Shown here: positions 2,237-49,199 of the stretch, in pieces | How the letters are laid out: each line of letters opens with the position of its first letter | How positions within the stretch are numbered: the stretch's first letter is position 1 | NCBI GenBank assembly: GCA_016188295.1 | Contig: JACPIA010000004.1 | Coordinates: 108,478 to 162,967 of the forward strand | Length of the DNA stretch: 54,490 nucleotides | Origin: Candidatus Vogelbacteria bacterium | GTDB lineage: Bacteria > Patescibacteriota > Minisyncoccia > Phycocordibacterales > XYD1-FULL-46-19 | Reading direction: 5' to 3' | Notes under the pieces: model-generated | Told to the model about the DNA's origin: nothing | The model's input: only the letters and a program-made list of their open reading frames with translations | Databases searched by the model: none | Program-made: the position numbers and the translations under genes

Positions 2237-3139
2237 ATGGCCAATCGCCACTTATCGAGAAGTCTCGCCCTCCAAACATTGTTTGAATGGGATTTTGTCG
2301 GTGCGCCTAACAATCAGATCAAGGCGATTATGACGCGTATTAGTACCGAGTTTGGTCCCGGGCTTGATGATGCCTCTTTTTTAAAAACCTTAGTTAGTGA
2401 TGTGGTGGCCAAGCAAGATAAATTAGATCGAATTATTGAAAAGGCCGCCCCCGACTGGCCCTTATCGCAAATTGCGATTGTGGATCGTAATGTCTTGCGT
2501 CTTGGTTTGTATGAACTTTTATTTGCCCCTAAAGATGAGGTGCCGGCGCGGGTAGCGATTAACGAGGCTATTGAACTCGCTAAAACGTTTGGTGGTGAGG
2601 GCAGTGGCCGTTTTGTTAACGGGGTGCTTGGTGCCGTGTATAAAGAAATGGGAGAGCCGGGTAAAGATGAGGTGCCGGCTAAAAAGCGTCGCCCTAAAGA
2701 TGTGCCCTACGAGCAAATGCCCATAGAGCGTTTGGGTGGGGCGGTAGTGTATACTTGTAACGGCGCCGGTATTGAGCTGGCTTTGGTCCATGATATTTTT
2801 GGCTACTGGACGCTGTCTAAAGGCCACATTAAAGATGGTGAGCCCTTGGAGCTCGGTACCAGTCGGGAGCTTAAAGAGGAGCTAAGTCTAGACATTACTG
2901 TTGGTGAGTTTCTCGGTACTAACGAGTATATTGCCTCGCACCCCGAGCAGGGTAAAATTCGCAAGCAAGTTAATTACTTTTTAGCTGAAGCCAGCGAACC
3001 CAAACAATTAAAATTGGGTGCTAAAAAAGGTTTGACCGAGGCTAAGTGGTTTGCTTTGGCTGATATTCCCGATCTTAAAATGTATGACGATGTGGTGCCT
3101 CTGGTGACTAAAGCGATTACCTTGTTGGTAAGAAAATAA
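2237..3139 (+). CDS. nusB: NusB antitermination factor fused to a C-terminal Nudix hydrolase domain
   Basis: Residues 1 to about 140 look like NusB (SRSLALQTLFEWDF..AINEAIELAKTFGG..FVNGVLG). The C-terminal part carries a Nudix box, GHIKDGEPLELGTSRELKEELSL. Confidence 0.75.
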   Translation: MANRHLSRSLALQTLFEWDFVGAPNNQIKAIMTRISTEFGPGLDDASFLKTLVSDVVAKQDKLDRIIEKAAPDWPLSQIAIVDRNVLRLGLYELLFAPKDEVPARVAINEAIELAKTFGGEGSGRFVNGVLGAVYKEMGEPGKDEVPAKKRRPKDVPYEQMPIERLGGAVVYTCNGAGIELALVHDIFGYWTLSKGHIKDGEPLELGTSRELKEELSLDITVGEFLGTNEYIASHPEQGKIRKQVNYFLAEASEPKQLKLGAKKGLTEAKWFALADIPDLKMYDDVVPLVTKAITLLVRK

Positions 3140-23602: not shown

Positions 23603-23664
23603 AGCGGTAGAGCGGTCGCCTGTTAAGCGATTGGTCGTAGGTTCGATCCCTACTCCCGGAGCCA
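23590..23664 (+). tRNA. tRNA-Asn (anticodon GTT)
   Basis: TCCGGGA TA GCTC AGCGGTA GAGC G GTCGC CTGTTAA GCGAT TGGTC GTAGG TTCGATC CCTAC TCCCGGA G CCA. Clean cloverleaf. Confidence 0.95.
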
Positions 23665-25233
23665 TGTGGGATTAGCCGAGTTAAAAGCTCGGCTTTTCTC
23701 TTTATTAGAGCCTTCATTCGGAGGTTTGAACGTGCCAGAATTTTTTGCGGACGGATTTGAGACGAGAATCATCGGCAGAAGTGCAGAATCCGTGTCAATG
23801 CTTATGTTTTTGTCCTTTAGGAGGAGGTTCGAACCTAAGGCGGATAAAATGACTTTTCTCGCGTGCTGGCCCCGTTCCGTGAATGCTTCTTTGGCATCGG
23901 TTGCGAACTTGATCACGTTATCGGCCGTCTGCAGCCAGCTGTCCACCCGCGCGTCAGTATCATTCAAAAGCTCATGCAGTTTTGCTTTCTCCTGATTGAT
24001 CGTTGATTTTTTTCGTGCAAATTCTTCTTCGCTTATTTCACCAGCGGCACGCATATCGATAAGAGCATCCAGCTTCCGCACGCACGCTTCGTAATTTTTC
24101 TGCTGATTGGAGAGGATTGCATTTCGATCAGCTGCCTCCCGGCCATTTTCATTCTGAAGCCACTTCATTGCCCAGCCGTGAAATTCTTCCGGCGGCCGGA
24201 CTTTAGCGAGCGTGCCGGTGATCTGCTTTTCCATCTCTTTTACTTCAATACATTTTTGAGCGCACGGACCCTTGCGTTTGGTGCAGTGGTAGTAGGTGTA
24301 GCGGTGAACATTGCCGTTTTTATTTTTCTTGGTCTTGTTTTCTGCCGTGACCATGCATCCACACTCGCCACACCGGATCATGCCGGTATAGGCAAATGAA
24401 TGGGCTTCCGGTTTTGGCTTACTGCCTCGGCCCAGGAGAACCTGGACGCGGTCATATTCATCGCGAGTGATCATCGGTTCGTGCTTGCCCTTATGCCAGT
24501 TGCCCGATCCGGCCGGCCATTCAAACCAGCCGTAGTAGAAGGAATTGTAGAGCACGCGGTAGAAGCCACTCCGTGCCAATTTCTTTAAGCCCCATTGATT
24601 GACAGCAATTTCGTGAACACGCGGCGCGGTATAAGTTCCGCTTAAAATCATATCGAACATTTTCCGAATGATTGGAAACATCTTCGGGTCTTTGCGAATC
24701 GTTTTAAAGCCTTTCATTTTATCCGGTGTATTCATGTAGCCGATTGGAGCAACGCCAGGGTGCCAGCCCATTTCCACCTTACGTCTTAGCCCACGCTTTA
24801 CGTCCACGCCCTTATTATCGTTTTCCAATTTCGCCTGACTACACAGGAGGTTCAATAAAAATTTATCATTCGGTGAATTCTTAAAAGCCTGTCCAGGTGT
24901 GCGGATTTCGAGGAGCTTGTTCTGATCCATGAGATAAACTAGATAGCCGGTGTCCACGGAATTACGTGATAACCGGTTCGGATGCCACGCAACAATACCC
25001 TCGGCTTCGCCTTTCTCAATCCGTTTTATCATCGCGTTGAAGATTTCCCGGCCGGGTGCTTTGGCTGAATAGGATTCTTCGAGGCGTTCCACCATTTGAA
25101 GCTTTTCCCGTTTTGCGAGTGCTTCCAATTCGCTCTTTTGCGAGTCAATCGAGAGGACCTGTCTGTCTTCTTGTTCTGAAGATTTTCGAGCGTAGAGGAA
25201 GTACTTGAGTTTTGGTTGTACTTCCTGGTTCAT
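23650..25233 (-). CDS. large serine recombinase (integrase)
   Basis: N-terminal resolvase domain (YARKSSEQED catalytic Ser, NRLSRN), recombinase domain, Cys-rich zinc ribbon (CGECGC..YYHC) and a coiled-coil tail. Confidence 0.85.
   Translation of the reverse strand: MNQEVQPKLKYFLYARKSSEQEDRQVLSIDSQKSELEALAKREKLQMVERLEESYSAKAPGREIFNAMIKRIEKGEAEGIVAWHPNRLSRNSVDTGYLVYLMDQNKLLEIRTPGQAFKNSPNDKFLLNLLCSQAKLENDNKGVDVKRGLRRKVEMGWHPGVAPIGYMNTPDKMKGFKTIRKDPKMFPIIRKMFDMILSGTYTAPRVHEIAVNQWGLKKLARSGFYRVLYNSFYYGWFEWPAGSGNWHKGKHEPMITRDEYDRVQVLLGRGSKPKPEAHSFAYTGMIRCGECGCMVTAENKTKKNKNGNVHRYTYYHCTKRKGPCAQKCIEVKEMEKQITGTLAKVRPPEEFHGWAMKWLQNENGREAADRNAILSNQQKNYEACVRKLDALIDMRAAGEISEEEFARKKSTINQEKAKLHELLNDTDARVDSWLQTADNVIKFATDAKEAFTERGQHARKVILSALGSNLLLKDKNISIDTDSALLPMILVSNPSAKNSGTFKPPNEGSNKEKSRAFNSANPTWLRE
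23675..23703 (+). terminator. rho-independent terminator after tRNA-Asn
   Basis: GCCGAG-TTAAAAG-CTCGGC followed by TTTTCTCTTT. It lies antisense within the last codons of the recombinase ORF. Confidence 0.65.
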
Positions 25234-26381: not shown

Positions 26382-26822
26382 TCATGGTGGACCCGGGCCA
26401 TGATTCTCTAAGACACCTGACCGTGCTTCATTATGAACCCCGGCAGACTGGAGAAGTCTGGGGTTGAGGCGATACAAAGTTCCGGCCCACCGGCCGCGCT
26501 CTGATGTTCCTGGTCTGGTTTCTATCAGCCCAAGACCGGCAAGTTTCTTTCTCACACGGCGGCATGTTGATCTGCTGAACCCGAACGAAGCGAACCCGCG
26601 CTCTTTATCTTCGCGCGTGGTAAATAATCGGTCGGTATGCCAAAACCAGCCGTCTGCATTTGCATAGCGGTTTGAGAGATGGCAGATAACCATGAGAAAA
26701 TCCCGCTCGGCATGTGTAAGCGAATTCTTCAGCCGGTCGTCATCGAAGACCAGGTGAGGAGCTGGAAAGAAATTTAAGCTTTTACCACGTGTTGTCCGGT
26801 TCGGTTTGTTCATATGATTCAC
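26382..26822 (-). CDS. hypothetical protein, possible winged-helix DNA-binding or replication-associated
   Basis: C-terminal FSRSTCRRVRKKLAGLGLIETRPG resembles a wHTH. Weak call. Confidence 0.4.
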   Translation of the reverse strand: MNHMNKPNRTTRGKSLNFFPAPHLVFDDDRLKNSLTHAERDFLMVICHLSNRYANADGWFWHTDRLFTTREDKERGFASFGFSRSTCRRVRKKLAGLGLIETRPGTSERGRWAGTLYRLNPRLLQSAGVHNEARSGVLENHGPGPP

Positions 26823-27090
26823 TAAATATTTCAGCTACTTTTTCACTGACGGCTTTCTCGACCAGGACGCCGACTTCGTGGTTAATTGGATGAAAAATAT
26901 TAATGTTTTGTCCGGCCACTTTGCGTGTTGGATACACAAGCCGGTATCCGCCCTCACGTCTGGAGAACACGGCCACCGATCCCATCCAGAATTTGCTGTC
27001 CAGAACAAACGAAACAAACCCAAGGAGGCCGTCCTGGGGTTTAACCGGGTAGAACTGTATTTCGCTAATTGTGGTTGGTGTTGAGATCAT
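26782..27090 (-). CDS. SpoVG-family protein
   Basis: IQFYPVKPQDGLLGFVSFVLD..VAVF..YRLVYPTRK..IFHPIN..V..AV matches the SpoVG pattern (DGrm.A.aSitlD, PSkr, HPIN). Confidence 0.65.
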   Translation of the reverse strand: MISTPTTISEIQFYPVKPQDGLLGFVSFVLDSKFWMGSVAVFSRREGGYRLVYPTRKVAGQNINIFHPINHEVGVLVEKAVSEKVAEIFSESYEQTEPDNTW

Positions 27091-27265
27091 GGCTTTTCAC
27101 TACTTTTTCTTTGAAGTCGTCGATGTTTGGCTCACCCATGTAGGTGATCTTGTAGAGTTTGAAAAGATTATTCGCGCGCAAAGCAGCCTCCTCATCGGAG
27201 AGCTTTACGCCGTAGCGTTTTTCGTAAAGCGTTTTAAATTCTTGGATTGCTTCTTGGGGCAACAT
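27065..27265 (-). CDS. hypothetical small protein (66 aa)
   Basis: ORF only. No clear Shine-Dalgarno sequence. Confidence 0.35.
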   Translation of the reverse strand: MLPQEAIQEFKTLYEKRYGVKLSDEEAALRANNLFKLYKITYMGEPNIDDFKEKVVKSHDLNTNHN

Positions 27266-27559: not shown

Positions 27560-28333
27560 TTAGATGCTATTCAATCGTTTCTCAGCAACTTTTATATATT
27601 TATCCTCAGTCTCAACGCCTATCCACTTTCTACCTAAACGTTTGGCTACAGCAGCGGTTGTACCGCTTCCCAGGAAGGGATCGAGGACAATGTCGCCTTT
27701 GTTGCTGCTAGCAAGAATAACCCTCTCGAGAAGGTTTTCTGGCTTCTGTGTCGGATGAGCTGATCGACCGGTTTTATCCTTCACTCGTTCTTTACCCTGT
27801 ACAATAGGCATAATCCAGAGATCGCGCATTTGTTTTTCGGACCCATCCTTAGCTTTATCGGGGTTCATCTTTTTGATAACAGAGTAATTAAATACCCATT
27901 TCTTACCCTTCGAGAAAAATAATATGTATTCGCAAGAATGAGTAAAGGTGCGTCGAGTCATGCTTGGCATAGCGTTATTCTTGTGCCAGGTAATAATATT
28001 CCTTGGAATGAATCCGAGAGTCTTAAGAGTCATGACTAGCTCACCGATATTGTGATACGTACAGGAGATATAAATACTGCCAGTCGGTTTTAAGACTCTT
28101 TTGCAGGCCTCTATCCATTCTTTGGTAAATTTTAGGTACTCAGCTTCGGTCATCTGGTCCCACTTTTCGTTAACCATGAACCAATCTCCGCCCGTTTTAT
28201 TTCCTTCCCATTTAAGACCATTTCCCGAAAGGTTGTATGGAGGATCGGCAAAAATCAAATCCACGCTTTCTTCCGGGATGTCTTTATTCAATATTGTCCG
28301 GCAATCGCCTTTGTGAATGGTGTTTAGCTTCAT
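27560..28333 (-). CDS. beta-class DNA N6-adenine (possibly N4-cytosine) methyltransferase, HinfI/CcrM-like (M2)
   Basis: Motif IV IFADPPYN precedes HPTQKP and motif I DPFLGSGTTAAVA (beta order). An ATGA overlap couples it to the upstream REase stop. Confidence 0.85.
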   Translation of the reverse strand: MKLNTIHKGDCRTILNKDIPEESVDLIFADPPYNLSGNGLKWEGNKTGGDWFMVNEKWDQMTEAEYLKFTKEWIEACKRVLKPTGSIYISCTYHNIGELVMTLKTLGFIPRNIITWHKNNAMPSMTRRTFTHSCEYILFFSKGKKWVFNYSVIKKMNPDKAKDGSEKQMRDLWIMPIVQGKERVKDKTGRSAHPTQKPENLLERVILASSNKGDIVLDPFLGSGTTAAVAKRLGRKWIGVETEDKYIKVAEKRLNSI

Positions 28334-30147
28334 ACTTGTGCTGATAAAATTTCTCTAGACCATTGTTCGACGACTCCAGGTATTTGTGAGGTCCAAATGT
28401 CAGAGCTAGGTGCGGTGCTGGTCAAGTTGATTATGGAATCGTAAAGATTCATAAGTTGCCGGTGATCAAGTCGTTGACCACGGTCTTTGATTGCGATAAT
28501 CGCTTCCAATAATTTTGTGAGTTCGTTAATTGTCAACGGCACAATCTTTTGTCGACGTCCTTCATATTCGTATTTAACAGCTGTCCAGAAAGTGTTTACT
28601 GTATCTCTGTGCAAAGTCGGAGCGACAAATAAACAGTAAGTATCTTTACTATTATTTGCGTCCTCGAAGTCCCTCAGATGTCTCATTACTGGCTGACCTT
28701 CCTGCATCCACTGAGCACGGTTAGTAAGCATAGTAACCTCACATACTCCGTTGAAGGCATCATAGAAACATTCGATATCTGGTTTGTTTGCCGGGGCAGT
28801 AAAGGTTGGCTGGTTATCGTCTCCTACCGGATAATTTGGCTTGATTGCAAGTGCGTCATTAATGGCATTCAAAGCTAAGATAGCTAAATGTTCAAGCTCA
28901 ATACTCTTTTTCTCTTTGGACTGTCGGATGTTGCGTAGCCGATCTATGTATTCTCTAACTTTATCGACATTTTGAGATACAAAATGATCTTCAGTTTCTT
29001 GAAGAGTTCTACGGTAATCCCTCAATTCACCGACATATACTTTTAGTTGTTCAACTGAAAGACGATCGGTGTTCTTAAATTCAAAATTAGGTATTTGTAT
29101 TCTTTGTTCTCTGAGCTGGTTTTGATACTGCCTAATATCATCAGCAGTATAGTTGCTGATTCGCACCAATTCTGTTTGAGTTTCCCAAGGCAGAATCGGC
29201 AGATTGATGTCAGAAATGTAATCAATGTATTCTTCCGCTGTAAAATCTTGGCTTGAACCATTGTCCGTCTCCAATATCTTTTGAATTTCAATACTTCTCC
29301 TTGGCTCAAGATCAATGTAATAGCCGTTGCCACGTAAGTGGAAGTATCTGGTCATTCGGAAATAACGACGAATATTGTCGCCGTAGTCCCTGGCATGTTC
29401 CATATTTTCAAAATCTTCAAAGTTTTCGCTTACATAACTATGGATGTACGCTTGCTTTTCTCTTTCATTTGCAAGTCTTTCGAGGCCCGTTCGGAATTCT
29501 AATACCTTACGAGCTTGGGCCTGAATATTTTGATAGCTAATAAGTGTAGGAATAAAAATATCAAATTCAACCTGAGAAAGCCCTTTTTCTGTAAGTCCGC
29601 GCTCGTGACAAATTTTATTTACTTCATTGATGAGATGGAGCGTCGCAATGAAAGGTTTAATGTCATACCCGTCTTCAACCTTAAAATCTCTTGAAAGAGG
29701 ATTCGGTAATTGCCATTTAAGAAAACTCTTGAAGAACATTTCACCAAGATCGGCATCTTCTTCCAGCAGGTACTCTCCAAAAGAAGTTATCCGAATCCGA
29801 CCCTGATCATCTATTTTCGCCAATCCCATCTTCTTAATCGGATTGAACGATTGTCGACCACGCATATCACCAGCTCCTACATAATTTCTAGCATTCAAAA
29901 TTTCTTCAGCCTGTTCGTAGGTAAGTGTCTCTGAATTTTCCAATAATTCTCTGTGTTCTCGAGAGAGATTGTTTGTAAACTGCTTGTTCCCAGCACCATA
30001 TAATTTATGTTGAATCAAAAGAATTTGGAATCGTCTTTGAGTATCATGATTCCAAACCTCGCCATCTAATGGCTTAAGGGCAACCAGAAAGTTCCTGATT
30101 CTCTCTGGGTTTCTAACCGTTGTTGATATGCTCCAAATTTTTTTCAT
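28330..30147 (-). CDS. AlwI / N.BstNBI / MlyI / PleI-family type IIS-like restriction or nicking endonuclease
   Basis: N-terminus WSISTTVRNPERIRNFL; mid RRYFRMTRYFHLRGNGYYIDLEP; C-terminus PDIECFY..CEVT..YCLFVAPTL. These parallel what I recall of N.BstNBI (TRYFRYTGLFVARGNQLVLNPE; PDMEIIY..GEVT..YCLFIAPEI). Confidence 0.7.
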   Translation of the reverse strand: MKKIWSISTTVRNPERIRNFLVALKPLDGEVWNHDTQRRFQILLIQHKLYGAGNKQFTNNLSREHRELLENSETLTYEQAEEILNARNYVGAGDMRGRQSFNPIKKMGLAKIDDQGRIRITSFGEYLLEEDADLGEMFFKSFLKWQLPNPLSRDFKVEDGYDIKPFIATLHLINEVNKICHERGLTEKGLSQVEFDIFIPTLISYQNIQAQARKVLEFRTGLERLANEREKQAYIHSYVSENFEDFENMEHARDYGDNIRRYFRMTRYFHLRGNGYYIDLEPRRSIEIQKILETDNGSSQDFTAEEYIDYISDINLPILPWETQTELVRISNYTADDIRQYQNQLREQRIQIPNFEFKNTDRLSVEQLKVYVGELRDYRRTLQETEDHFVSQNVDKVREYIDRLRNIRQSKEKKSIELEHLAILALNAINDALAIKPNYPVGDDNQPTFTAPANKPDIECFYDAFNGVCEVTMLTNRAQWMQEGQPVMRHLRDFEDANNSKDTYCLFVAPTLHRDTVNTFWTAVKYEYEGRRQKIVPLTINELTKLLEAIIAIKDRGQRLDHRQLMNLYDSIINLTSTAPSSDIWTSQIPGVVEQWSREILSAQV

Positions 30148-30154
30148 AGATTTA

Positions 30155-31849
30155 TTATTTACCTGTAACTTTGCAGTAAAATACTCGCTCGGTATGGCCC
30201 AGTGCTTCGCTTTTACCGGTAGTAAATGCTTTATATTCTCGCTCGAAGACTTCGACTTCTCCTCGCTCCTTCAAAATCTCAATAATCCTGTGATCTGGTA
30301 TTTTAGCATTGGATCGTTCGTTCATTTTCTCGCCGGTATTGTTGTATGAGACTAGAATATGTTTTGTTTTTGCGTTCTGTATCAAGTCTTCGAAAGCGTG
30401 AACCGCACCTTTTAAACAGTAGCGACTTTTTAAATGTGCGCGGTCTACCATTTTTTTGCCTATGCCCTCAACTTTTGGTTTCTCCCAGGTAGCAATATTC
30501 TCTAGTAGATGGTAGGAATCTCCATACTGCCTTGAATTGTATGGCGGATCAATATAAAGCACATCACACGCGATTTCTCTAATCAATTGGTTTGCGTCTT
30601 TTTGATGAACTTCGTTGTTAAGATTGTTTTTCACATCAATGCCCGGCATTAAAAGTCGCAGGCTCTGTATCGTATCAAGTTTCTTTCTATAGGTCTCATA
30701 ATGGCCAACAGTATTAGCCACTTTATCAATTGCGTAAATTAATGAGGTCAACAGAATATTTTTCTCTTCTTGGTCGATCTCCCCATCTTTACATAGTTTT
30801 TCTATTTCTTCTCTGACCGCTCCAATTTTCTGTGCATTTTCCTTAGTAAAATAAGAGCCGCCAAAAATCTCCGATACGTAATTCTCTTTCTTCGGCTGGA
30901 GGTTATTTAAATGTTCGATGATGTTTGATATTTTTTCTTCGTTGTAATTTTTAGTGTTCAGCCAGCATTGGAGAGATGTAAAGCTGCTATCAAGAATATC
31001 GTTCGAGATGATTTTGGTATCTGGCCTATTGAAGTAATGTCCAACAACTCCGGTACCCGCAAAGATATCGCAAAAGCTGTAATAGCCACGACATTTATCA
31101 GCTACTATGTCTCCTATAAAACCGAGGAGTTTAGTTTTGTTGCCCAAAAACCTTCGGTTATGTATTTGAAGTAATCGTTGTTCGCTTTTTTGAGGATAGA
31201 CGAACAGGGGGAGCTGGGCCGGTTTAGGTAGAGAATCGAACCTGTTTCGTAATACGCCCGTGACTTTGCCTCTGATCTCGACATTCTTAGTGAGTATAGG
31301 TTTATAACTTTCATTGGCTGGCTGAAGTCTGATACCGTTTTTTTCTTTGTAGATTCTTTTAAGAGTAGCTTCGTTTCCATTTATAATAGCCACGCCGATC
31401 TCGCCATTATCAACCACTGGTTGTTCGCGGACAATCACAGTATCACTATCAAAAATTCCGGCGTCCTGCATACTGTCTCCGCGAACTTTTAATGCATAGT
31501 GTCGGGCATGGCCTGATGTAAAATCCTTAGGCACGGAAATAGTTTCTGGTATTTCTATGGCCTCTATTGGTTCACCGGCCGCGATCATACCCAGCAGAGG
31601 GATTTCTATAAAATTATTTGAGCCTCCTTCCGTTCGGCCATTAACCTCAATAGCTCGAGCAAGATTGTCGAATTTTTTTATATAACCTTTATCAATGAGA
31701 GCATTAATATGCTGATGAACTGTTGATACAGCAGAAAGGCGTAGTTTTTTCTTTATTTCTTCCAGAGTCGGAGAGTAGCCCTGATCATCAATGAAAGTTT
31801 TTACGAAGTCTAAGACTTCTTTTTGTCGTTTAGTGACTGGAATACCCAT
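30155..31849 (-). CDS. fusion protein: complete LexA (wHTH plus S24 autopeptidase) joined to an alpha-class (Dam/D12-like) DNA N6-adenine methyltransferase (M1)
   Basis: Residues 1 to about 205 align to LexA: RQKEVLDFV..SPTLEEI, cleavage-site AAGEP, Ser in VRGDSM, Lys in TLKRIY. Residues from about 225 to 564 hold RFLGNKTKLL, motif I DIFAGTGVVG and motif IV YIDPPYNSRQY. Confidence 0.8.
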   Translation of the reverse strand: MGIPVTKRQKEVLDFVKTFIDDQGYSPTLEEIKKKLRLSAVSTVHQHINALIDKGYIKKFDNLARAIEVNGRTEGGSNNFIEIPLLGMIAAGEPIEAIEIPETISVPKDFTSGHARHYALKVRGDSMQDAGIFDSDTVIVREQPVVDNGEIGVAIINGNEATLKRIYKEKNGIRLQPANESYKPILTKNVEIRGKVTGVLRNRFDSLPKPAQLPLFVYPQKSEQRLLQIHNRRFLGNKTKLLGFIGDIVADKCRGYYSFCDIFAGTGVVGHYFNRPDTKIISNDILDSSFTSLQCWLNTKNYNEEKISNIIEHLNNLQPKKENYVSEIFGGSYFTKENAQKIGAVREEIEKLCKDGEIDQEEKNILLTSLIYAIDKVANTVGHYETYRKKLDTIQSLRLLMPGIDVKNNLNNEVHQKDANQLIREIACDVLYIDPPYNSRQYGDSYHLLENIATWEKPKVEGIGKKMVDRAHLKSRYCLKGAVHAFEDLIQNAKTKHILVSYNNTGEKMNERSNAKIPDHRIIEILKERGEVEVFEREYKAFTTGKSEALGHTERVFYCKVTGK

Positions 31850-31951
31850 AAGTTTGATTGATGCTTAAAGCTGAAAGTGCTATATTTCTAGTATACCGAA
31901 AATCTTACGAAAACGGAAGCGAGTCGGTTGTGGATTACTAAAGTAGCGAAT

Positions 31952-32749
31952 ATGGAATTAGAACCATTTAAATTGCCTGCCCTTGAAGCACTGGCAAAAA
32001 TAATCGGAGATAACTACACCGGGTCGGAAATATCCGAGCTTTTTCGTAAAGCAGGCTTTTCGGAGATATCACACGATGGTGGCACGAAGTGGCGATTTGT
32101 TTATGCTGCCCTGGAAGCGATGCAAAAACAGACTTACGGTACGTTTAATATCGCGAAGCTGATTCAACAACTTTGTGATCCGCAAGAGTATTTTTCGGCT
32201 CCAGAAAAACACGAGGTCATTTGTAAACAAGTGAACCAAATTTTAAGGTTTTACGGCTTGCTGGTTGGTGATGATGGGAAGCTACGGAAGTCTGGGGAGA
32301 AGGTCACATCTTTATCAAAATCCATACCGGAAAACGCCAAAATCTTTGATGACCGTAAATTCCACAATAAAATTTCCCAGCATGCTCGCAAGTTATTTAC
32401 CGAGGGCAATTATTTTCATGCAGTTTTTGAATGCTGCAAGGTCTATGACAAAGAGATCCAAGAAAAGTCTCAGATGTCTGAGTACGGATCGCGATTAATG
32501 GAAAGTGCTCTTTCGCTTACCGGTACGCTTAAGCTGAACGCGCAACAAACAAGAACTGAAAAGAATGAACAAGAGGGTGTTATGCATCTTTCGGTAGGTC
32601 TAATGCGGGCCATCCGCAACCCCCAAGCCCACGAGCCAGCACTTGATTGGCCTATTGACCGAGAAGCGGCTTTGGATCTGTTGTCGTTTTTGAATTTTCT
32701 TTTTAACAAAATAGATAAGACAATTTATTTTAATCAAAAATCAAATTAA
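31952..32749 (+). CDS. Ymh/TIGR02391-like protein (265 aa from the ATG at 31952)
   Basis: The C-terminal LSVGLMRAIRNPQAHEP..DREAALDLLSFLNFLFNKID matches my memory of the Hypoth_Ymh (RNxxAH) domain. The N-terminal half is unassigned. Confidence 0.55.
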   Translation: MELEPFKLPALEALAKIIGDNYTGSEISELFRKAGFSEISHDGGTKWRFVYAALEAMQKQTYGTFNIAKLIQQLCDPQEYFSAPEKHEVICKQVNQILRFYGLLVGDDGKLRKSGEKVTSLSKSIPENAKIFDDRKFHNKISQHARKLFTEGNYFHAVFECCKVYDKEIQEKSQMSEYGSRLMESALSLTGTLKLNAQQTRTEKNEQEGVMHLSVGLMRAIRNPQAHEPALDWPIDREAALDLLSFLNFLFNKIDKTIYFNQKSN

Positions 32750-32753
32750 CGTT

Positions 32754-35700
32754 ATGAGCAACTTTTCAGATACAAGAGGTTCAATATGGCGAAAGTGGGA
32801 CCTGCACGTCCACACACCAGGCACCAAAAAGAATGACCAGTATAAAGCCGATAATGGTGCGGATGTCTGGGATATCTTTTGTAAGAAGATCGAGGATTCT
32901 GATGTTCAGGCCGTGGGCATTACAGACTACTTTTCAGCTGATAGTTACTTCAACTTCTTAGGTAAATTTGGAGCAAAATATCCCGACTCCCAAAAGGCTT
33001 TCTTTCCGAATATTGAACTTTGTACCAACGATGTTGTAAATGCCGGGAACGAAGAAGTAAACTTGCATCTAGTCTTTAATCCATCGGCCCCGGAAATAGA
33101 TGCAAAAATTAGGACATTTCTCCAGAGTCTAAAGACAAATAAGACTGTGTCAGGAGGTCGCAATATAAAAGCCTCTGAGCTTTCGTCGCAGACTGATTAC
33201 GAAGAAGCAACAACTACCCGACAATTTATCGAAGAGGCCTTGAGTGAAACTTTTGGCGACAAAGTTGACTTAACGGAATATGTGATCGTGTTGACTGCTG
33301 TAAACGGAGATGGTCTACGGACCGAGACCGAAGATGTAGGCGGCAAGAGGCGAGGTAAAAAAAGAAAAGCTGTCATCACTGATGAGCTTGATAAATTCAG
33401 TAACGGTTTTTTTGGGAATTCTGGCAATACAGCTTATTTTCTTAATAAGGACAGGTTTGAAACTGATGAAGAAATTGAGCCGAAACCTGTTGTTACCGGA
33501 AGCGATGCCCATTCTTTCGCAGATCTCGATGAATGGCTTGGTAAGATTGTTCTTAAGGACGGCGTAGTTATTAAACAATCCGTATGGATTAAAGCTGACC
33601 TTACCTTTGAAGGATTGCGTCAGATAATTTTTGAACCCGAATGTCGAGTATTTATAGGAGAGGAACCGGATACAGAAATTCGAGCACGTTCAAATCCCAG
33701 AAAATTTATAGAGTCAATTCGCATTACGCACATTTCGGGATACGACGGTCGATGTGGTACTTGGTTCAAGGACGAGAATATCCCCTTAAATAAGGAGCTG
33801 GTTGCGATTATCGGGAATAAAGGCAGCGGAAAAAGTGCGCTTACCGATGTCATTGGGCTTCTAGGAAACAGTCATAACCAGAAATATGAGGTGTCGAATG
33901 GTAAAACCGAAGAGCTTTTTTCTTTTTTGAACAAAGAGAAATTTTTAAAGGGACACTGTGCGGCAAATTTTAATGGCGAGCTCCATTGGTATGCCGGTGA
34001 CCCCGATGTGAGATTATTGAATGCCGAAACAGATATTAGTGTTTTGGAGAATGTAGAGTACCTGCCTCAGAAGTATCTCGAAAAAATATGCTCCAATATC
34101 GAAGACGATGAATTCCGGCACAAACTAAATGAAGTTATTTTTGGCTACGTTGAAGATAAAGACCGTTACGGGAAAACTAGCCTTGAAGCCCTAATAGACT
34201 ACCTATCAAATCAAACTCGGGAGGATATAGCGTTAGCTCAACATACGCTCCATGAAGAGAATGAGAAAGTGGTTGCCGCAGAGAAAAAACTCTCCTTAGA
34301 TTACCGTAAAGAAGTTGCAGATAAGATTCGTTTACGCAATGAGGAATCCGCTGCGCATGACAAAACTAAGCCTACGGTCGTTCCGAAACCAGTTGAAGGC
34401 GGAGATGTAGCAACAAAAAACGCAGCTGATATAGCTAAGATTGAAACAGAGATCGCTGCTCTTGATTCGAGCATTCGAGAATTACAGAAAGAGCAAACCG
34501 CAGTTTCAAAGGACGCTGAGGAGCTTCGGCAGCTTAAACAGACAATTGAACGGCAGGTTAAAGCCATATCTGATCTAAAACCAAAATATGACGCGCTTTT
34601 AACTGCCTCCGGTATAAGGTTCGACGACCTTGTTACGTTTTCTGCAAAATACGAGAAACTTGATGAGGTGGTCCAAAACAAGGCTAGCAGGATTGGTGAA
34701 ATTGAAATTCAGCTCAGAACGGAAGAATCTGTTGCTAGTCTTGATCCTGTGTTGAGAGAAAATGCGGAAAAACAAAGTCTGGTATGTAAGCGTTCACAAC
34801 TTGAAAAACAGCGTAAAGAAATTATTGATCAGCTTGATAAGCCAAACCGCGAATACCAGGCATATCTTAAAGAAGAAGCAAAGTGGCAAAAGCGTAAGCA
34901 AGAGATTGATGGTGATAACGCTACACCTGATCCGGAAACACTCAACGGGCTGAAGCAAGAGTTAGAACGGATTACCAGCGTTTATCCCGAAGAGCTTCGG
35001 CTTGTGCGTAATAGTAGGGACCAAGCAAGTAAGGCTGTTCTTCAGAAAAAAGAAATACTGATTTCCTTCTATAACTCTGTTAAGCAATCAATAGATAAAG
35101 AGATCGAACGATATGCTGAAGATCTGGGCGACTATGAAATTTCGATTGAAGCAAGTTTGCGTTTCGATACGATTTTCCATGATGAGTTTTTTAAATATAT
35201 TAATCAAGGTGTAAAAGGCAGCTTCTATGGCTATGAAGAAGGCAAAACGCTTTTGAAACAACTTACGGAAAAAGTGAATGATTGGGAAAATGAGAACGAG
35301 GTCATTGCGACGCTGCAGAGCGTGGTATCACATTTGGATAGCGACGAACGTGAGGGTTTAGCTTCTGACGGTAAAGCTCGGGATGTTTTTCGACAAATGA
35401 AGCAAGGTAAAAATCCAGTGGATTTTTACGATTTTCTTTTCGGATTCGGATACCTTCAGACAAAATATGATCTTCGTGTTGATGGAAAAGACTTGAGTGA
35501 ACTTTCGCCAGGCGAGCGAGGAGGACTCCTTCTCATTTTCTACCTCATGCTTGATAGAAGGGATATACCTCTCGTAATAGACCAGCCCGAGGATAATCTG
35601 GACAACAAGAGTGTTTATGAGATTCTCGTCACCTTCCTAAAGAAAGCAAAAAAGCGTCGCCAAATAATTATGGCCACACATAATCCCAATCTTGCTGTCG

Positions 35701-35894
35701 TCGCTGATGCAGAGCAGATTATTCATGTTTCCATCGACAAAAAGAATAAAAATGATTTCGACTTCTCGCCTGGTGCAATCGAAAACCCCGACACCAACAA
35801 ACGAGTAATAGATATTCTTGAGGGAACGCTTCCAGCCTTCGATAACCGCAGATTGAAATACAGGAAACAGATCAAGAATGCGCCTACTGTGTAG
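32754..35894 (+). CDS. PHP phosphoesterase domain fused to an SMC/ABC-type coiled-coil ATPase (1046 aa)
   Basis: PHP ligands WDLHVHTPG, ITDY, NIEL, NLHLVF and TGSDAHS. Walker A is IIGNKGSGKSALTD. A coiled coil of about 300 aa follows, then LSPGERGGLLL, Walker B LVIDQPEDNLD and ATHNPNL. It starts 4 nt after the Ymh-like gene. Confidence 0.8.
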   Translation: MSNFSDTRGSIWRKWDLHVHTPGTKKNDQYKADNGADVWDIFCKKIEDSDVQAVGITDYFSADSYFNFLGKFGAKYPDSQKAFFPNIELCTNDVVNAGNEEVNLHLVFNPSAPEIDAKIRTFLQSLKTNKTVSGGRNIKASELSSQTDYEEATTTRQFIEEALSETFGDKVDLTEYVIVLTAVNGDGLRTETEDVGGKRRGKKRKAVITDELDKFSNGFFGNSGNTAYFLNKDRFETDEEIEPKPVVTGSDAHSFADLDEWLGKIVLKDGVVIKQSVWIKADLTFEGLRQIIFEPECRVFIGEEPDTEIRARSNPRKFIESIRITHISGYDGRCGTWFKDENIPLNKELVAIIGNKGSGKSALTDVIGLLGNSHNQKYEVSNGKTEELFSFLNKEKFLKGHCAANFNGELHWYAGDPDVRLLNAETDISVLENVEYLPQKYLEKICSNIEDDEFRHKLNEVIFGYVEDKDRYGKTSLEALIDYLSNQTREDIALAQHTLHEENEKVVAAEKKLSLDYRKEVADKIRLRNEESAAHDKTKPTVVPKPVEGGDVATKNAADIAKIETEIAALDSSIRELQKEQTAVSKDAEELRQLKQTIERQVKAISDLKPKYDALLTASGIRFDDLVTFSAKYEKLDEVVQNKASRIGEIEIQLRTEESVASLDPVLRENAEKQSLVCKRSQLEKQRKEIIDQLDKPNREYQAYLKEEAKWQKRKQEIDGDNATPDPETLNGLKQELERITSVYPEELRLVRNSRDQASKAVLQKKEILISFYNSVKQSIDKEIERYAEDLGDYEISIEASLRFDTIFHDEFFKYINQGVKGSFYGYEEGKTLLKQLTEKVNDWENENEVIATLQSVVSHLDSDEREGLASDGKARDVFRQMKQGKNPVDFYDFLFGFGYLQTKYDLRVDGKDLSELSPGERGGLLLIFYLMLDRRDIPLVIDQPEDNLDNKSVYEILVTFLKKAKKRRQIIMATHNPNLAVVADAEQIIHVSIDKKNKNDFDFSPGAIENPDTNKRVIDILEGTLPAFDNRRLKYRKQIKNAPTV

Positions 35895-47551: not shown

Positions 47552-47627
47552 GGGCCCTTAGCTTAGTTGGTAGAGCGCCTCATTTGCAATGAGGAGGTCA
47601 TCGGTTCGAATCCGATAGGGTCCACCA
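47552..47627 (+). tRNA. tRNA-Cys (anticodon GCA)
   Basis: GGGCCCT TA GCTT AGTTGGTA GAGC G CCTCA TTTGCAA TGAGG AGGTC ATCGG TTCGAAT CCGAT AGGGTCC A CCA. Confidence 0.95.
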
Positions 47628-49140
47628 AATGATAATTTTGATCAGCAGAATGCTGATTTAGTTCGTAGATTAGGCCTAATTTGGCGGTTCCAAATCCTTT
47701 TCCTCGTGTATACGGGATTCCCTCGGGGAAAACTAGTTTCTGAAACTTCGGCTGTAGGTGCGGTACAAGGTCAAACCACTGTCGGCCGAGGTCGGATATA
47801 AAGTTTGTGGCATAAATGACAGTGCCTTCTAGATCGAACTGTTCGATCCTTGCTTCGTTGGACGATATCCTCGTAGCGGCCATTTCGTTTTCTACTTCAT
47901 CCTTACGCTCCACGAATTCCTCTTTCGTGTAGGACCCATCCTCTCGCATTTCGTAGATGCGTTTTTTCTTTGCCTCGAGCATTTCCATTTTCTTATTCCA
48001 CTTTTCTACCTCGAGCTCGAACCTATGGCCCTTGGCTCGCCACATGTCTATGGCGGTTTCTTTCAGTGCTTTCAGGAACGCTTCTTTGGGTGTTATCTGC
48101 GCAAGGTAGGTAGAGAATTCTTTTTCCAGCTCTAACTTCTTTATGCTCTTTCCAAACTCACTGCATGTCTTATTTCCGCAGTGATAGTAGTTGTATCTGC
48201 CTCCCATACCGCCCCGTGGCGCGCTTCCGGTAAGTCCTCGTGAGCACGATCCGCACATAACCGTTCTCCGGAGTGGAAAGTCGGGATTAAATTTATTGTA
48301 TTTCGTCATCACTCTCTTTTTACCGGAGAGGATCATTAAAATCTGGTACATCTCATCTTTGGTGATCATGGGTGTATGCAAACCCTCTACATCTTTGCCT
48401 GTCCACGGATTGGCGATAATTCCGGCATAATACTTCAAATAGTTTTTAAGCATTCTGGCTACGAGCTGTGGTGAGCTTTTCTTGCCGGTTAAGTCTTTCA
48501 AGCCCCACTCATCGAGTTTCCTTGCCAGCTCGCTTTGCGAATGGAGTCCATTGGCAAATTCTTTTAAGGCTCGCTGGATGATCGGGAATATTTCCTCGTG
48601 AGGCGGATCGGCATAGGTCTTTTTCTCGCCATGTTTCTTAAAATTCATACACTTGTATCCGATCGGTGGTTTCCACGGATAGATGCCCTGATTAATTCGG
48701 GCGAGCATGCCGTCGCTACAGCGTTGTTTTCGTATAGCATTATCAAACTCGGCGATACCGGCAAGGAATGTTTCAAGGAGCTTGGCAACTGGCTCGTTGC
48801 CAATAGGCTCGGTGACCGAATGCAGAGTTACTCCATAGGTGGCCAGTATTTTTCTGATGGCGAAGTGGTCATCGGCATTTCTCGCAAACCGATCGACTCG
48901 CAACACCACAAAGGCCTGCACCTTATCTTTATTCTTGCGACAGAATTCCAATGCATCGAGGAATTTCTTTCTATTCTGAAGACTCAAGTCTTTTGCACTT
49001 TGGCCTTCCTCGCAAAAAACTAAGTCAACATCAAGACCCTTCTCTTTGCAGTATTTTCGGCAAAGTTCCTCCTGATGTTCCAGTGAGGTTCCTTTGACCT
49101 GTTCGTCGCTTGATACTCTTGTGTAAATTATTGCTTTCAT
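47563..49140 (-). CDS. large serine recombinase (integrase)
   Basis: IIYTRVSSDEQ catalytic Ser, VDRFARN, recombinase domain, Cys-rich zinc ribbon (CGSCSR..YYHCGNKTC) and a coiled coil. The last ~22 codons are antisense to tRNA-Cys. Confidence 0.85.
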   Translation of the reverse strand: MKAIIYTRVSSDEQVKGTSLEHQEELCRKYCKEKGLDVDLVFCEEGQSAKDLSLQNRKKFLDALEFCRKNKDKVQAFVVLRVDRFARNADDHFAIRKILATYGVTLHSVTEPIGNEPVAKLLETFLAGIAEFDNAIRKQRCSDGMLARINQGIYPWKPPIGYKCMNFKKHGEKKTYADPPHEEIFPIIQRALKEFANGLHSQSELARKLDEWGLKDLTGKKSSPQLVARMLKNYLKYYAGIIANPWTGKDVEGLHTPMITKDEMYQILMILSGKKRVMTKYNKFNPDFPLRRTVMCGSCSRGLTGSAPRGGMGGRYNYYHCGNKTCSEFGKSIKKLELEKEFSTYLAQITPKEAFLKALKETAIDMWRAKGHRFELEVEKWNKKMEMLEAKKKRIYEMREDGSYTKEEFVERKDEVENEMAATRISSNEARIEQFDLEGTVIYATNFISDLGRQWFDLVPHLQPKFQKLVFPEGIPYTRGKGFGTAKLGLIYELNQHSADQNYHLVDPIGFEPMTSSLQMRRSTN

Positions 49141-49149
49141 AATGTCTTT

Positions 49150-49172
49150 TTTGGTGGACCTAGATTTCAAAC
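49150..49172 (-). repeat. inverted degenerate copy of the tRNA-Cys 3' end
   Basis: The minus strand reads TTTGAAATCTAGGTCCACCAAA, compared with the tRNA TTCGAATCCGATAGGGTCCACCAAA. There is an exact 11-mer, GGTCCACCAAA. Confidence 0.5.
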
Positions 49173-49199
49173 ACACCCTATACTAATTCGTTGGACAAG

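Follow-up and report, generated by a model that had tools for sequence, protein, structure and literature searches.

A complete LexA repressor fused to the first methyltransferase of a type IIS restriction-modification operon in Patescibacteria

Gene organization of the operon

A stretch of DNA of 54,490 nucleotides from Candidatus Vogelbacteria bacterium (GenBank assembly GCA_016188295.1, contig JACPIA010000004.1, positions 108,478 to 162,967), hereafter called the window and numbered from its first nucleotide, contains a restriction-modification (R-M) operon of which the first gene encodes a LexA repressor fused to a DNA methyltransferase. This gene occupies 30155..31849 of the minus strand and is one uninterrupted open reading frame (ORF) of 564 amino acids (aa) with an ATG start in the window sequence. 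Its product, designated LexA-M1, is followed by a restriction endonuclease (R) and a second methyltransferase (M2). An earlier reading of the window, made from the sequence only, had proposed an operon of LexA-M1, the endonuclease and M2, with an 8-nt gap and then an ATGA overlap. The gene order and the ATGA overlap, which is 4 nt long and lies at the R/M2 junction, are borne out, but the gap between the M1 stop and the R start is 7 nt (TAAATCT). The features of the operon are as follows.

31897..31911, minus strand: putative LexA operator (SOS box), a direct repeat TTCG-N7-TTCG, TTCGTAAGATTTTCG, assigned by cross-locus conservation
31890..31918, minus strand: inferred sigma-70-type operon promoter, read from the sequence, with the -35 element TTCCGT at 31918-31913, a 17-nt spacer and the -10 element TATACT at 31895-31890
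31640..31849, minus strand: LexA winged helix-turn-helix (HTH) DNA-binding domain, aa 1-70, supported by Pfam, TIGR00498 and the alignment with 3K2Z; recognition helix VSTVHQHINAL; helices 7-23, 29-36 and 41-53 in the AlphaFold2 model
31601..31639, minus strand: variable LexA hinge, aa 71-83, the least conserved segment (mean pairwise identity 0.33), with a predicted local distance difference test score (pLDDT) of <50 at residues 71-78
31250..31600, minus strand: Peptidase S24 self-cleavage and dimerisation domain, aa 84-200, supported by Pfam (104 bits), Foldseek and invariant residues
31574-31579, 31472-31474 and 31358-31360, minus strand: codons of the cleavage site A91-G92, of the nucleophile S126 and of the general base K164, respectively
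31157..31249, minus strand: flexible linker of about 25-35 aa between LexA and the methyltransferase, aa 201-231, with a pLDDT of <50 at 203-239
30158..31156, minus strand: alpha-class D12 N6-adenine DNA methyltransferase M1, aa 232-564, supported by Pfam, PADLOC and invariant motifs; the stop codon is at 30155-30157
28330..30147, minus strand: AlwI/N.BspD6I-family type IIS restriction (or nicking) endonuclease R (RE_AlwI, 279 bits; PADLOC 'Type II nicking endonuclease', 444 bits)
27560..28333, minus strand: second methyltransferase M2, beta-class N6_N4 and CcrM-like (Pfam N6_N4_Mtase, 228 bits; CcrM 6PBD in the PDB, E 3e-62)

R also matches the large subunit of N.BspD6I in the PDB with an E value of 4e-34. 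The operon therefore contains an RE_AlwI-family endonuclease and two methyltransferases, as does a two-methyltransferase type IIS system of the AlwI/N.BspD6I kind, in which each methyltransferase serves one strand of an asymmetric site, and the order M1-R-M2 (D12, RE_AlwI and N6_N4) recurs in dozens of loci. Because R is N.BspD6I-like and M2 is CcrM-like, the target for N6-adenine methylation is predicted to be of the GAGTC type. The observed to expected ratios of GAGTC and GGATC are 0.88 and 0.87 respectively, so that site avoidance is uninformative for specificity.

Domain organization of LexA-M1

The sequence-only reading had placed a LexA module and an alpha-class DPPY adenine methyltransferase in this single ORF, and a search with profile hidden Markov models finds all three domains of such a protein. 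LexA_DNA_bind (PF01726) matches aa 4-66 with 62.5 bits (cutoff 23.7), Peptidase_S24 (PF00717) matches aa 84-196 with 104 bits, and MethyltransfD12 (PF02086) matches aa 234-501 with 116 bits. The lexA equivalog TIGR00498 of NCBIfam matches with 189.7 bits against a cutoff of 110.95, from position 3 to position 201 of the 203 positions of the model. This nearly end-to-end match indicates that the LexA module is complete and is not a remnant. An alignment of residues 5-201 with Thermotoga maritima LexA (3K2Z; E 2.8e-31) likewise runs from end to end, and M1 scores 361 bits against MTase_II (PDLC03373) of PADLOC. The motifs that had been claimed from the letters are all present. They are IAAGEP, a cleavage-type motif that contains A91-G92, GDSM with S126, TLKRIY with K164, and DPPY at 434-437. 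FAGTG at 263-267, which represents motif I (FxGxG), is located N-terminal to DPPY, and this is the motif order of the alpha class. The methyltransferase core starts at LQIHNRRFLGNK, matching the start point in stand-alone and RadC-fused relatives.

The structure predicted by AlphaFold2 from 37 orthologues (mean pLDDT 74.9) consists of three folded modules with two disordered stretches between them, the LexA hinge at 71-78 and the linker at 203-239, where the pLDDT is below 50. In this model the N-terminal 200 aa are LexA-like and the methyltransferase domain is separated from them by the disordered linker, in agreement with the fusion read from the sequence. When the model is compared with the PDB by Foldseek, the best matches are full-length LexA structures (3K2Z, 3JSO, 1JHH and 8TRG). 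The TM-scores (structural similarity scores) to LexA C-terminal domains are 0.72-0.85, and the C-terminal domains of the lambda and 186 repressors are also matched. By sequence, fold and motifs, the fused LexA is a genuine LexA-family protein.

Conservation among orthologues

The three-domain ORF is shared by about 85 clusters at 90% identity in a set of 5.8 billion proteins, with lengths of 555-566 aa and identities of 59-96%. These clusters come from JGI, ENA, NCBI and Logan assemblies of Patescibacteria, with WWE3, Daviesbacteria, Parcubacteria and Saccharibacteria among the source names. The fusion also occurs in a finished genome, CP006914.1 (candidate division WWE3 RAAC2_WWE3_1, locus L005), where it is located at about 751 kb, with 97% identity and in the same gene neighbourhood, so that the window is closely related to that genome. 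The fusions are labelled 'transcriptional repressor LexA', 'adenine-specific DNA-methyltransferase' or 'Modification methylase StsI' in the databases.

If lexA and M1 were truly two genes joined by an error of sequencing, assembly or gene calling, a frameshift would be expected to separate them, as the sequence-only reading had pointed out. No frameshift is found: the ORF is uninterrupted in the window, in the roughly 85 independent clusters and in the finished genome, and both the length of 555-566 aa and the junction are conserved among the orthologues. Such errors are conceivable in principle, because two loci (L031 and L019) are listed by tblastn as full-length and yet are separate adjacent genes when they are translated. 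These two loci were dropped as fusions and are counted as cases of association. The probability that the fusion in the window is an artefact is practically negligible.

In the alignment of the 37 orthologues, A91, G92, S126 and K164 of the LexA module and F263, G265, G267, D434, P435, P436 and Y437 of the methyltransferase are invariant. The mean pairwise identities of the two LexA domains are 0.70 and 0.68, as compared with 0.74 for the methyltransferase. The Ala-Gly pair and the Ser/Lys dyad, on whose conservation the sequence-only reading had staked its proposal, are thus retained in these orthologues, as they are in the 40 distant fusions described below. As judged from the alignments, the cleavage site and the catalytic dyad are under strong purifying selection. 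A phage origin of the fusion was considered and rejected: a scan of viral contigs gave free LexAs (≤52% identity) and two long ORFs, and no close D12 fusion.

LexA fusions to other methyltransferases

A survey of databases indicates that the fusion is not a one-off: it is widespread, and LexA-M1 is one member of a large LexA-methyltransferase family. When the LexA part alone is used as a query, its nearest relatives include LexA fused to methyltransferases of other families. Among the species-representative genomes, the 80 closest LexA loci contain about 23 ORFs of 477-643 aa. All 24 long ORFs tested from these genomes match both LexA_DNA_bind and the S24 peptidase, and the methyltransferase models matched are N6_N4_Mtase (14), D12 (9) and C5 DNA_methylase (6). 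A91, G92, S126 and K164 are invariant in these 24 fusions. When 1.84 billion cluster representatives are searched exhaustively with HMMER, most of the nearest relatives prove to be long proteins that carry LexA N-terminally. Forty long representatives of clusters at 50% identity all contain LexA and S24 domains, and their partner is always a DNA methyltransferase: N6_N4 in 27, a type represented by Eco57I, N6_Mtase or MmeI in about 7, D12 in 5 and C5 in 2, with no other partner. The same four residues are invariant in these 40 proteins as well, despite an overall identity of 24-35%, and they are invariant in each of the four alignments made. Thus, in Patescibacteria, LexA is attached N-terminally to at least four unrelated families of DNA methyltransferases (D12, N6_N4, C5 and Eco57I/MmeI-type). 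The recurrence with at least four methyltransferase families and many nucleases, together with the invariant active site, argues for a selected function and not for an accident.

The gene immediately downstream is convergent in 18 of the 21 other fusions. It encodes a recognisable type II nuclease in about 14 cases, and these nucleases are of the MvaI/BcnI, Bsp6I, TaqI, BsaWI, NgoFVII, HNH and Endonuclease VII types. The association of lexA with methyltransferase genes is also seen without fusion. The closest free LexAs (P0196 and P0157) end 1-2 nt before large Eco57I-type genes, the LexA gene of L136 has an 8-nt overlap with a C5 methylase gene, and a separate LexA-like gene is located just upstream of the same M1-R-M2 cassette in L031 and L019. 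More distant LexAs are found in classical SOS contexts, for example adjoining a Y-family polymerase. The presence of unfused lexA genes beside Eco57I-type, C5 and D12 methyltransferase genes (positions 3001-6124 of L080, 3001-6612 of L081, 695-2405 of L136, 8001-9648 of L031 and 8001-10197 of L019) indicates that the LexA/R-M association is wider than the fusion. Unfused pairs are present in bins labelled Pseudomonadales and Clostridia, labels that may be unreliable, and the association may therefore extend beyond Patescibacteria.

A further group of relatives carries another N-terminal module in the place of LexA. In the RadC-D12 proteins P0091-P0120 (loci L007-L030, for example 8001-9026 of L009), the methyltransferase is 58-65% identical and is preceded by a complete RadC, which consists of a UPF0758_N helix-hairpin-helix domain (aa 4-78) and a RadC JAB domain (aa 102-218). 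Among many other bacteria, and in archaeal bins, the RadC-D12 genes stand at the head of the same M1-R(AlwI)-M2 cassette.

Promoter and putative operator

The putative LexA box is located wholly inside the spacer between the -35 and -10 elements of the operon promoter. The -10 element is TATACT or TATAAT in all relatives. A promoter island, ATTTTCG(T/G)(A/T)A.ATTTT(C/T)GGTATA(C/A)T, is invariant across nine fusion promoters, of which the flanks diverge, and it precedes all close orthologues as well as fusions with other methyltransferase classes. The repeats of the box have an 11-bp periodicity. Of 87 LexA genes, whether fused or free, 41 have an exact TTCG-N7-TTCG box in the 150 nt upstream, as compared with 1.1% of random windows taken from these loci. 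The usual layout is TTGAC..TTCG-N7-TTCG-(G)TATAAT, and it is also seen at the housekeeping lexA gene of CP006914.1, TTGACATATTCGTATAATGTTCGGTAGTAT.

The type of the box co-varies with the recognition helix encoded downstream. Genes with a helix of the (S/A)T(V/I)H.. type have TTCG boxes in 37 cases, TTCT boxes in 2 and no box in 11, and genes with a helix of the STAH(F/Y)(H/Y) type have TTCG boxes in 0 cases, TTCT boxes in 8 and no box in 2 (Fisher p = 1.4e-7, uncorrected for phylogeny). This co-variation is as predicted for direct autoregulation. The second dialect, TTCT-N7-TTCT (for example GACTTTCTATTTATTTTCTATTATAAT), is found upstream of the LexA start in L089, L090, L094, L096, L103, L105, L106, L110 and L143. 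With their differing helices, the two dialects form a natural pair in which specificity is swapped at the G/T position of the repeat.

A search of the 54-kb window for other LexA boxes (TTTTCG-N5-TTTTCG and TTCG-N7-TTCG) gives none in a promoter context beyond the operon promoter. The counts of boxes in the window alone are not above chance, so that the case for the operator rests on conservation across loci. A generic scan for promoters and terminators finds no internal terminator and no convincing internal promoter in the operon; it does not flag the operon promoter either, because the -35 element is weak. A GAGTC site is located at 31921-31925, 3 nt upstream of the -35 element. This site is not conserved in the 97%-identical L005 and is probably incidental, and control of the promoter by methylation was dropped for this reason.

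In the fusion loci in which the nuclease gene is convergent, no box is found within 200 nt upstream of this gene (0 of 18 loci), and the 3' ends of the M and R genes overlap or abut in 17 of the 18. This arrangement suggests that the LexA-controlled promoter drives only the methyltransferase in those systems.

A separate lexA gene and the genomic island

Other WWE3 genomes contain a lexA gene of 208 aa, whose product shares about 48% identity with the fused module. In CP006914.1, which has the fusion, a WWE3-specific search finds a separate lexA gene of 208 aa at 147.7-154.3 kb, with a TTCG-N7-TTCG box, and its product is 77% identical to the other WWE3 LexAs. The presence of this gene indicates that the fused LexA is not the global SOS regulator. 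The fused LexA is an extra, horizontally moving paralogue and not the housekeeping LexA. The opposite reading, that the housekeeping SOS master regulator has captured a methyltransferase, would account for the full score of the module against the LexA equivalog and for a box of the SOS-box class of the host. It is at odds with the separate, vertically inherited lexA of CP006914.1, with the location of the fusion in a low-GC island adjoining a serine recombinase, with its patchy distribution across different classes of the candidate phyla radiation, and with the lack of any other box in a promoter context in the window. This reading is extremely improbable.

The segment that contains the fusion has a GC content of 0.39-0.42, as compared with about 0.45 for core genes, and lies beside the gene of a large serine recombinase and a Ymh/TrlF gene pair of the PD-Lambda-3-like kind. 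It is a defence island embedded among the core genes rpoB/C, dnaG and rpoD. The low GC content and the bordering recombinase suggest that the island is an integrated mobile element. The window contains two large serine recombinases with Resolvase and Zn_ribbon_recom domains, at 23650-25233 and 47563-49176, both on the minus strand, and the first of them borders the R-M/defence segment.

Several other genes of the window were noted. The gene at 31928-32749 on the plus strand, which is divergent from the R-M operon, encodes a Hypoth_Ymh/TIGR02391 protein (PADLOC PD-Lambda-3_B, 118 bits). It is followed at 32754-35894 on the plus strand by a gene for a TrlF-family AAA ATPase of 1046 aa (NF045780, 645 bits), which has weak matches to Ppl, AriA and GajA. 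This pair probably represents a second defence system of the low-GC island. A promoter-like site on the plus strand at 31858-31886 (TTGATG-17-TATATT with TG) faces these genes, and the LexA box is located just downstream of its -10 element, so that the operator could gate the neighbouring defence genes as well. The divergent arrangement is common to L005 and is not shared by the other fusion loci. Three small overlapping ORFs of 146, 102 and 66 aa are located downstream of M2 at 26382-27265 on the minus strand. They are 82-95% identical in CP006914.1 (L005) and may belong to the island, and the 146- and 102-aa ORFs have no family match in a PADLOC scan, the only scan made for them. Elsewhere in the window, the ORF at 2237-3139 on the plus strand encodes a single protein of 300 aa that combines NusB (aa 7-136) with a NUDIX hydrolase (aa 181-282), an unusual pairing for this antitermination factor.

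Discussion

It is fairly likely that the LexA module of LexA-M1 represses its own promoter and is cleaved upon activation of RecA. According to this proposal, a dimer of LexA-M1 would occupy the box and repress its own operon, and the level of the methyltransferase would thereby be read out and held low and constant, as is the case for methyltransferases with an N-terminal HTH domain. RecA bound to single-stranded DNA would then trigger self-cleavage at A91-G92. Such DNA might arise from ultraviolet or chemical damage, from phage replication, or from nicks and breaks made by the nuclease of the cassette at under-methylated sites. Cleavage would separate the DNA-binding domain from the body that consists of the S24 domain and the methyltransferase, the promoter would be de-repressed, and more M1 would be produced; in this operon, R and M2 would rise as well. 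The box travels with the cassette between hosts, and the mobile cassette would gain self-contained autoregulation.

The physiological purpose of LexA-M1 is less certain than this core. The sequence-only reading had suggested that cleavage couples DNA damage or phage infection either to R-M expression or to the balance of methylation and restriction. Most relatives point to modification and not to R-M expression as a whole, because their restriction endonuclease genes are convergent and have no box. The most likely payoff is a damage-induced rise in modification, which would serve as a type II analogue of restriction alleviation and would counteract self-restriction by feedback. It is less likely that the purpose is simply to boost defence.

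Several points weigh against this interpretation. Cleavage, the dependence on RecA and the binding to the operator are all deduced, and the recA gene of the host was not located within the scope of the scan. R is co-transcribed with M1 and M2 in this operon, so that de-repression alone would leave the balance of modification and restriction unshifted. The -35 element is weak, and the promoter is missed by the generic scan. The co-variation of helix and box is phylogenetically non-independent and could in part reflect SOS-box dialects of the host lineages. Finally, a box of this class also accompanies the host LexA, so that each of the two proteins is likely to act on the promoter of the other, and the host LexA could be the real regulator of this promoter, the fused module being redundant or otherwise employed.

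The LexA module might instead be a constitutive, dimerising DNA-binding autorepressor, equivalent to the HTH domain of SsoII-type enzymes, with an idle peptidase and no link to damage. Methyltransferases that repress themselves through an N-terminal HTH domain are established (PMC3874152), and the position of the operator suits simple autorepression. An idle active site should decay, however, and the Ala-Gly pair, the Ser and the Lys are invariant at an overall identity of 24-35%, the S24 domain being conserved as well as the methyltransferase. This possibility is therefore considered unlikely. A post-translational role is similarly unlikely. According to this alternative, the cut at A91-G92 alters the stability, activity or oligomeric state of the methyltransferase, for example by exposing a C-terminus that ends in IAA and a new N-terminus, which could target the fragments to ClpXP or Lon, so that damage or infection would lower methylation by M1 and the nuclease would turn on the cell or on the replicating phage, as in abortive infection. 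The fusion is physical and recurs with four methyltransferase families, which suggests that the covalent link matters, and the N-terminal fragment released by cleavage would end with I89-A90-A91, residues that are invariant or nearly so in the 37 orthologues. The end of the cleaved E. coli LexA is VAA, which is recognised by ClpX and which the IAA end of the fused LexA resembles. Unfused lexA-methyltransferase gene pairs exist, however, indicating that the covalent link can be dispensed with; M2 would go on protecting GANTC-type sites in this operon; and the long disordered linker of the model offers no structural reason for cleavage to affect the activity of the methyltransferase.

It is also conceivable, but very improbable, that the affinity of LexA for RecA filaments or SOS boxes brings the methyltransferase to intermediates of recombination or repair, so that newly synthesised or incoming DNA is methylated before the nuclease reaches it. 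LexA docks in the groove of the RecA filament, PDB entries 8TRG and 8GMS are among the structural matches, and a flexible linker of about 25-35 aa, as predicted by the model, would let the methyltransferase reach nearby DNA. Such targeting leaves both the conserved operator in its own promoter and the unfused lexA-methyltransferase pairs unexplained.

Autorepression that is relieved by RecA-dependent cleavage can be extended to a more general suggestion, which is only tentative. Patescibacteria and a few other lineages may have replaced C proteins by a self-cleaving LexA that is fused or translationally coupled to the methyltransferase of many unrelated type II R-M systems and that acts in a closed autoimmunity-sensing loop. 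Nicks or breaks at unmodified chromosomal sites, which might be made by the nuclease of the system itself or arise during repair or recombination synthesis, would activate RecA, and the activated RecA would lead to cleavage of the LexA-methyltransferase protein. Transcription of the methyltransferase gene would then be de-repressed and protection restored, and in the convergent systems the transcription of the endonuclease gene would be interfered with.

Several known systems resemble parts of this scheme. Type II methyltransferases of the SsoII, Ecl18kI, EcoRII and MspI type repress their own promoter through an N-terminal HTH domain (PMC3874152), so that the precedent invoked by the sequence-only reading is established. 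These SsoII-type enzymes are the closest functional analogues of LexA-M1, because a DNA-binding domain is located N-terminal to the methyltransferase, the operator overlaps the M promoter, the level of the methyltransferase feeds back on its own transcription, and the endonuclease gene is often convergent. The known examples are C5 methyltransferases with a simple HTH domain and no signal input, whereas LexA-M1 has a winged HTH domain, an S24 peptidase and a D12 body. LexA-M1 would therefore work like the SsoII-type methyltransferases without being a member of them, with a repressor that could in principle be destroyed by the signal of activated RecA. The operon also resembles the R-M systems with C proteins, in that a dedicated transcription factor is carried in the cassette and is portable between hosts. 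C proteins are small, separate Xre-type HTH activators or repressors that mainly set the timing of endonuclease expression, and they have neither a protease nor a link to damage. No ORF for a small Xre-type C protein is found between or upstream of the three genes of the operon, in which LexA is the only regulator-like domain; unlike the C-protein systems, the LexA-M1 operon has neither a C gene nor a C-box.

LexA-M1 shares its fold, catalytic dyad, cleavage site and own-promoter box with the canonical LexA/SOS systems that use direct-repeat boxes, which are those of Alphaproteobacteria, Acidobacteria and Patescibacteria. According to the part of PMC7739468 that cites the study of Patescibacteria, direct-repeat motifs of LexA have evolved several times. 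Unlike the canonical LexA, LexA-M1 is attached to an enzyme of 340 aa, is an additional mobile paralogue and, as far as seen, is dedicated to one promoter. The lambda CI and 186 repressors and SetR of SXT-type integrative and conjugative elements are likewise self-cleaving S24-type repressors that give a mobile element an SOS input. These repressors stand alone and control lysogeny or transfer genes, and the genes of the element are switched on by damage. In the case of LexA-M1, the mobile element is instead an R-M cassette, whose repressor is joined to an antitoxin-like methyltransferase. Restriction alleviation of type I systems after damage is achieved by degradation of HsdR by ClpXP, and in the DpnII system the methylase DpnA is induced from a competence promoter. 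Both share the logic proposed here, by which the balance is shifted to protection when unmodified sites arise through repair, recombination or incoming DNA, but neither uses LexA or a fused repressor. The RadC-D12 fusions have an orthologous methyltransferase in the same AlwI-type operon and a parallel N-terminal layout of DNA-binding and peptidase-like domains, in which RadC, a module of unknown function, takes the place of LexA.

Neither fusions of LexA to methyltransferases nor R-M systems controlled by LexA were found described in the literature consulted, which did not include the study of the SOS network of Patescibacteria by Sanchez-Osuna et al. 2017 (Environ Microbiol 19:3465). What is rated as new here is the apparent autoregulation of a methyltransferase by a repressor that can be cleaved in response to a signal. 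The finding is robust, widespread and directly testable, although we infer its key biochemical steps from sequence.

An R-M system is toxic unless modification outpaces restriction, and the known solutions to this problem are C proteins, autorepression by methyltransferases with an HTH domain, methylation of the promoter and antisense RNA. If the proposed mechanism is correct, a methyltransferase with a complete and apparently cleavable LexA would be a fifth solution, which is tuned to a DNA-damage signal. The autoimmunity-sensing loop, if it exists, would be the first mechanism of restriction alleviation for type II systems and the first direct wiring of the modification activity of an R-M system to the SOS response. 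The repressor-enzyme module is compact and would be damage-responsive, so that it may be of use in synthetic biology. Such a mechanism could explain how type II systems spare the host after repair, recombination or entry into a new genome, and how mobile defence cassettes are portably regulated in the tiny genomes of the candidate phyla radiation.

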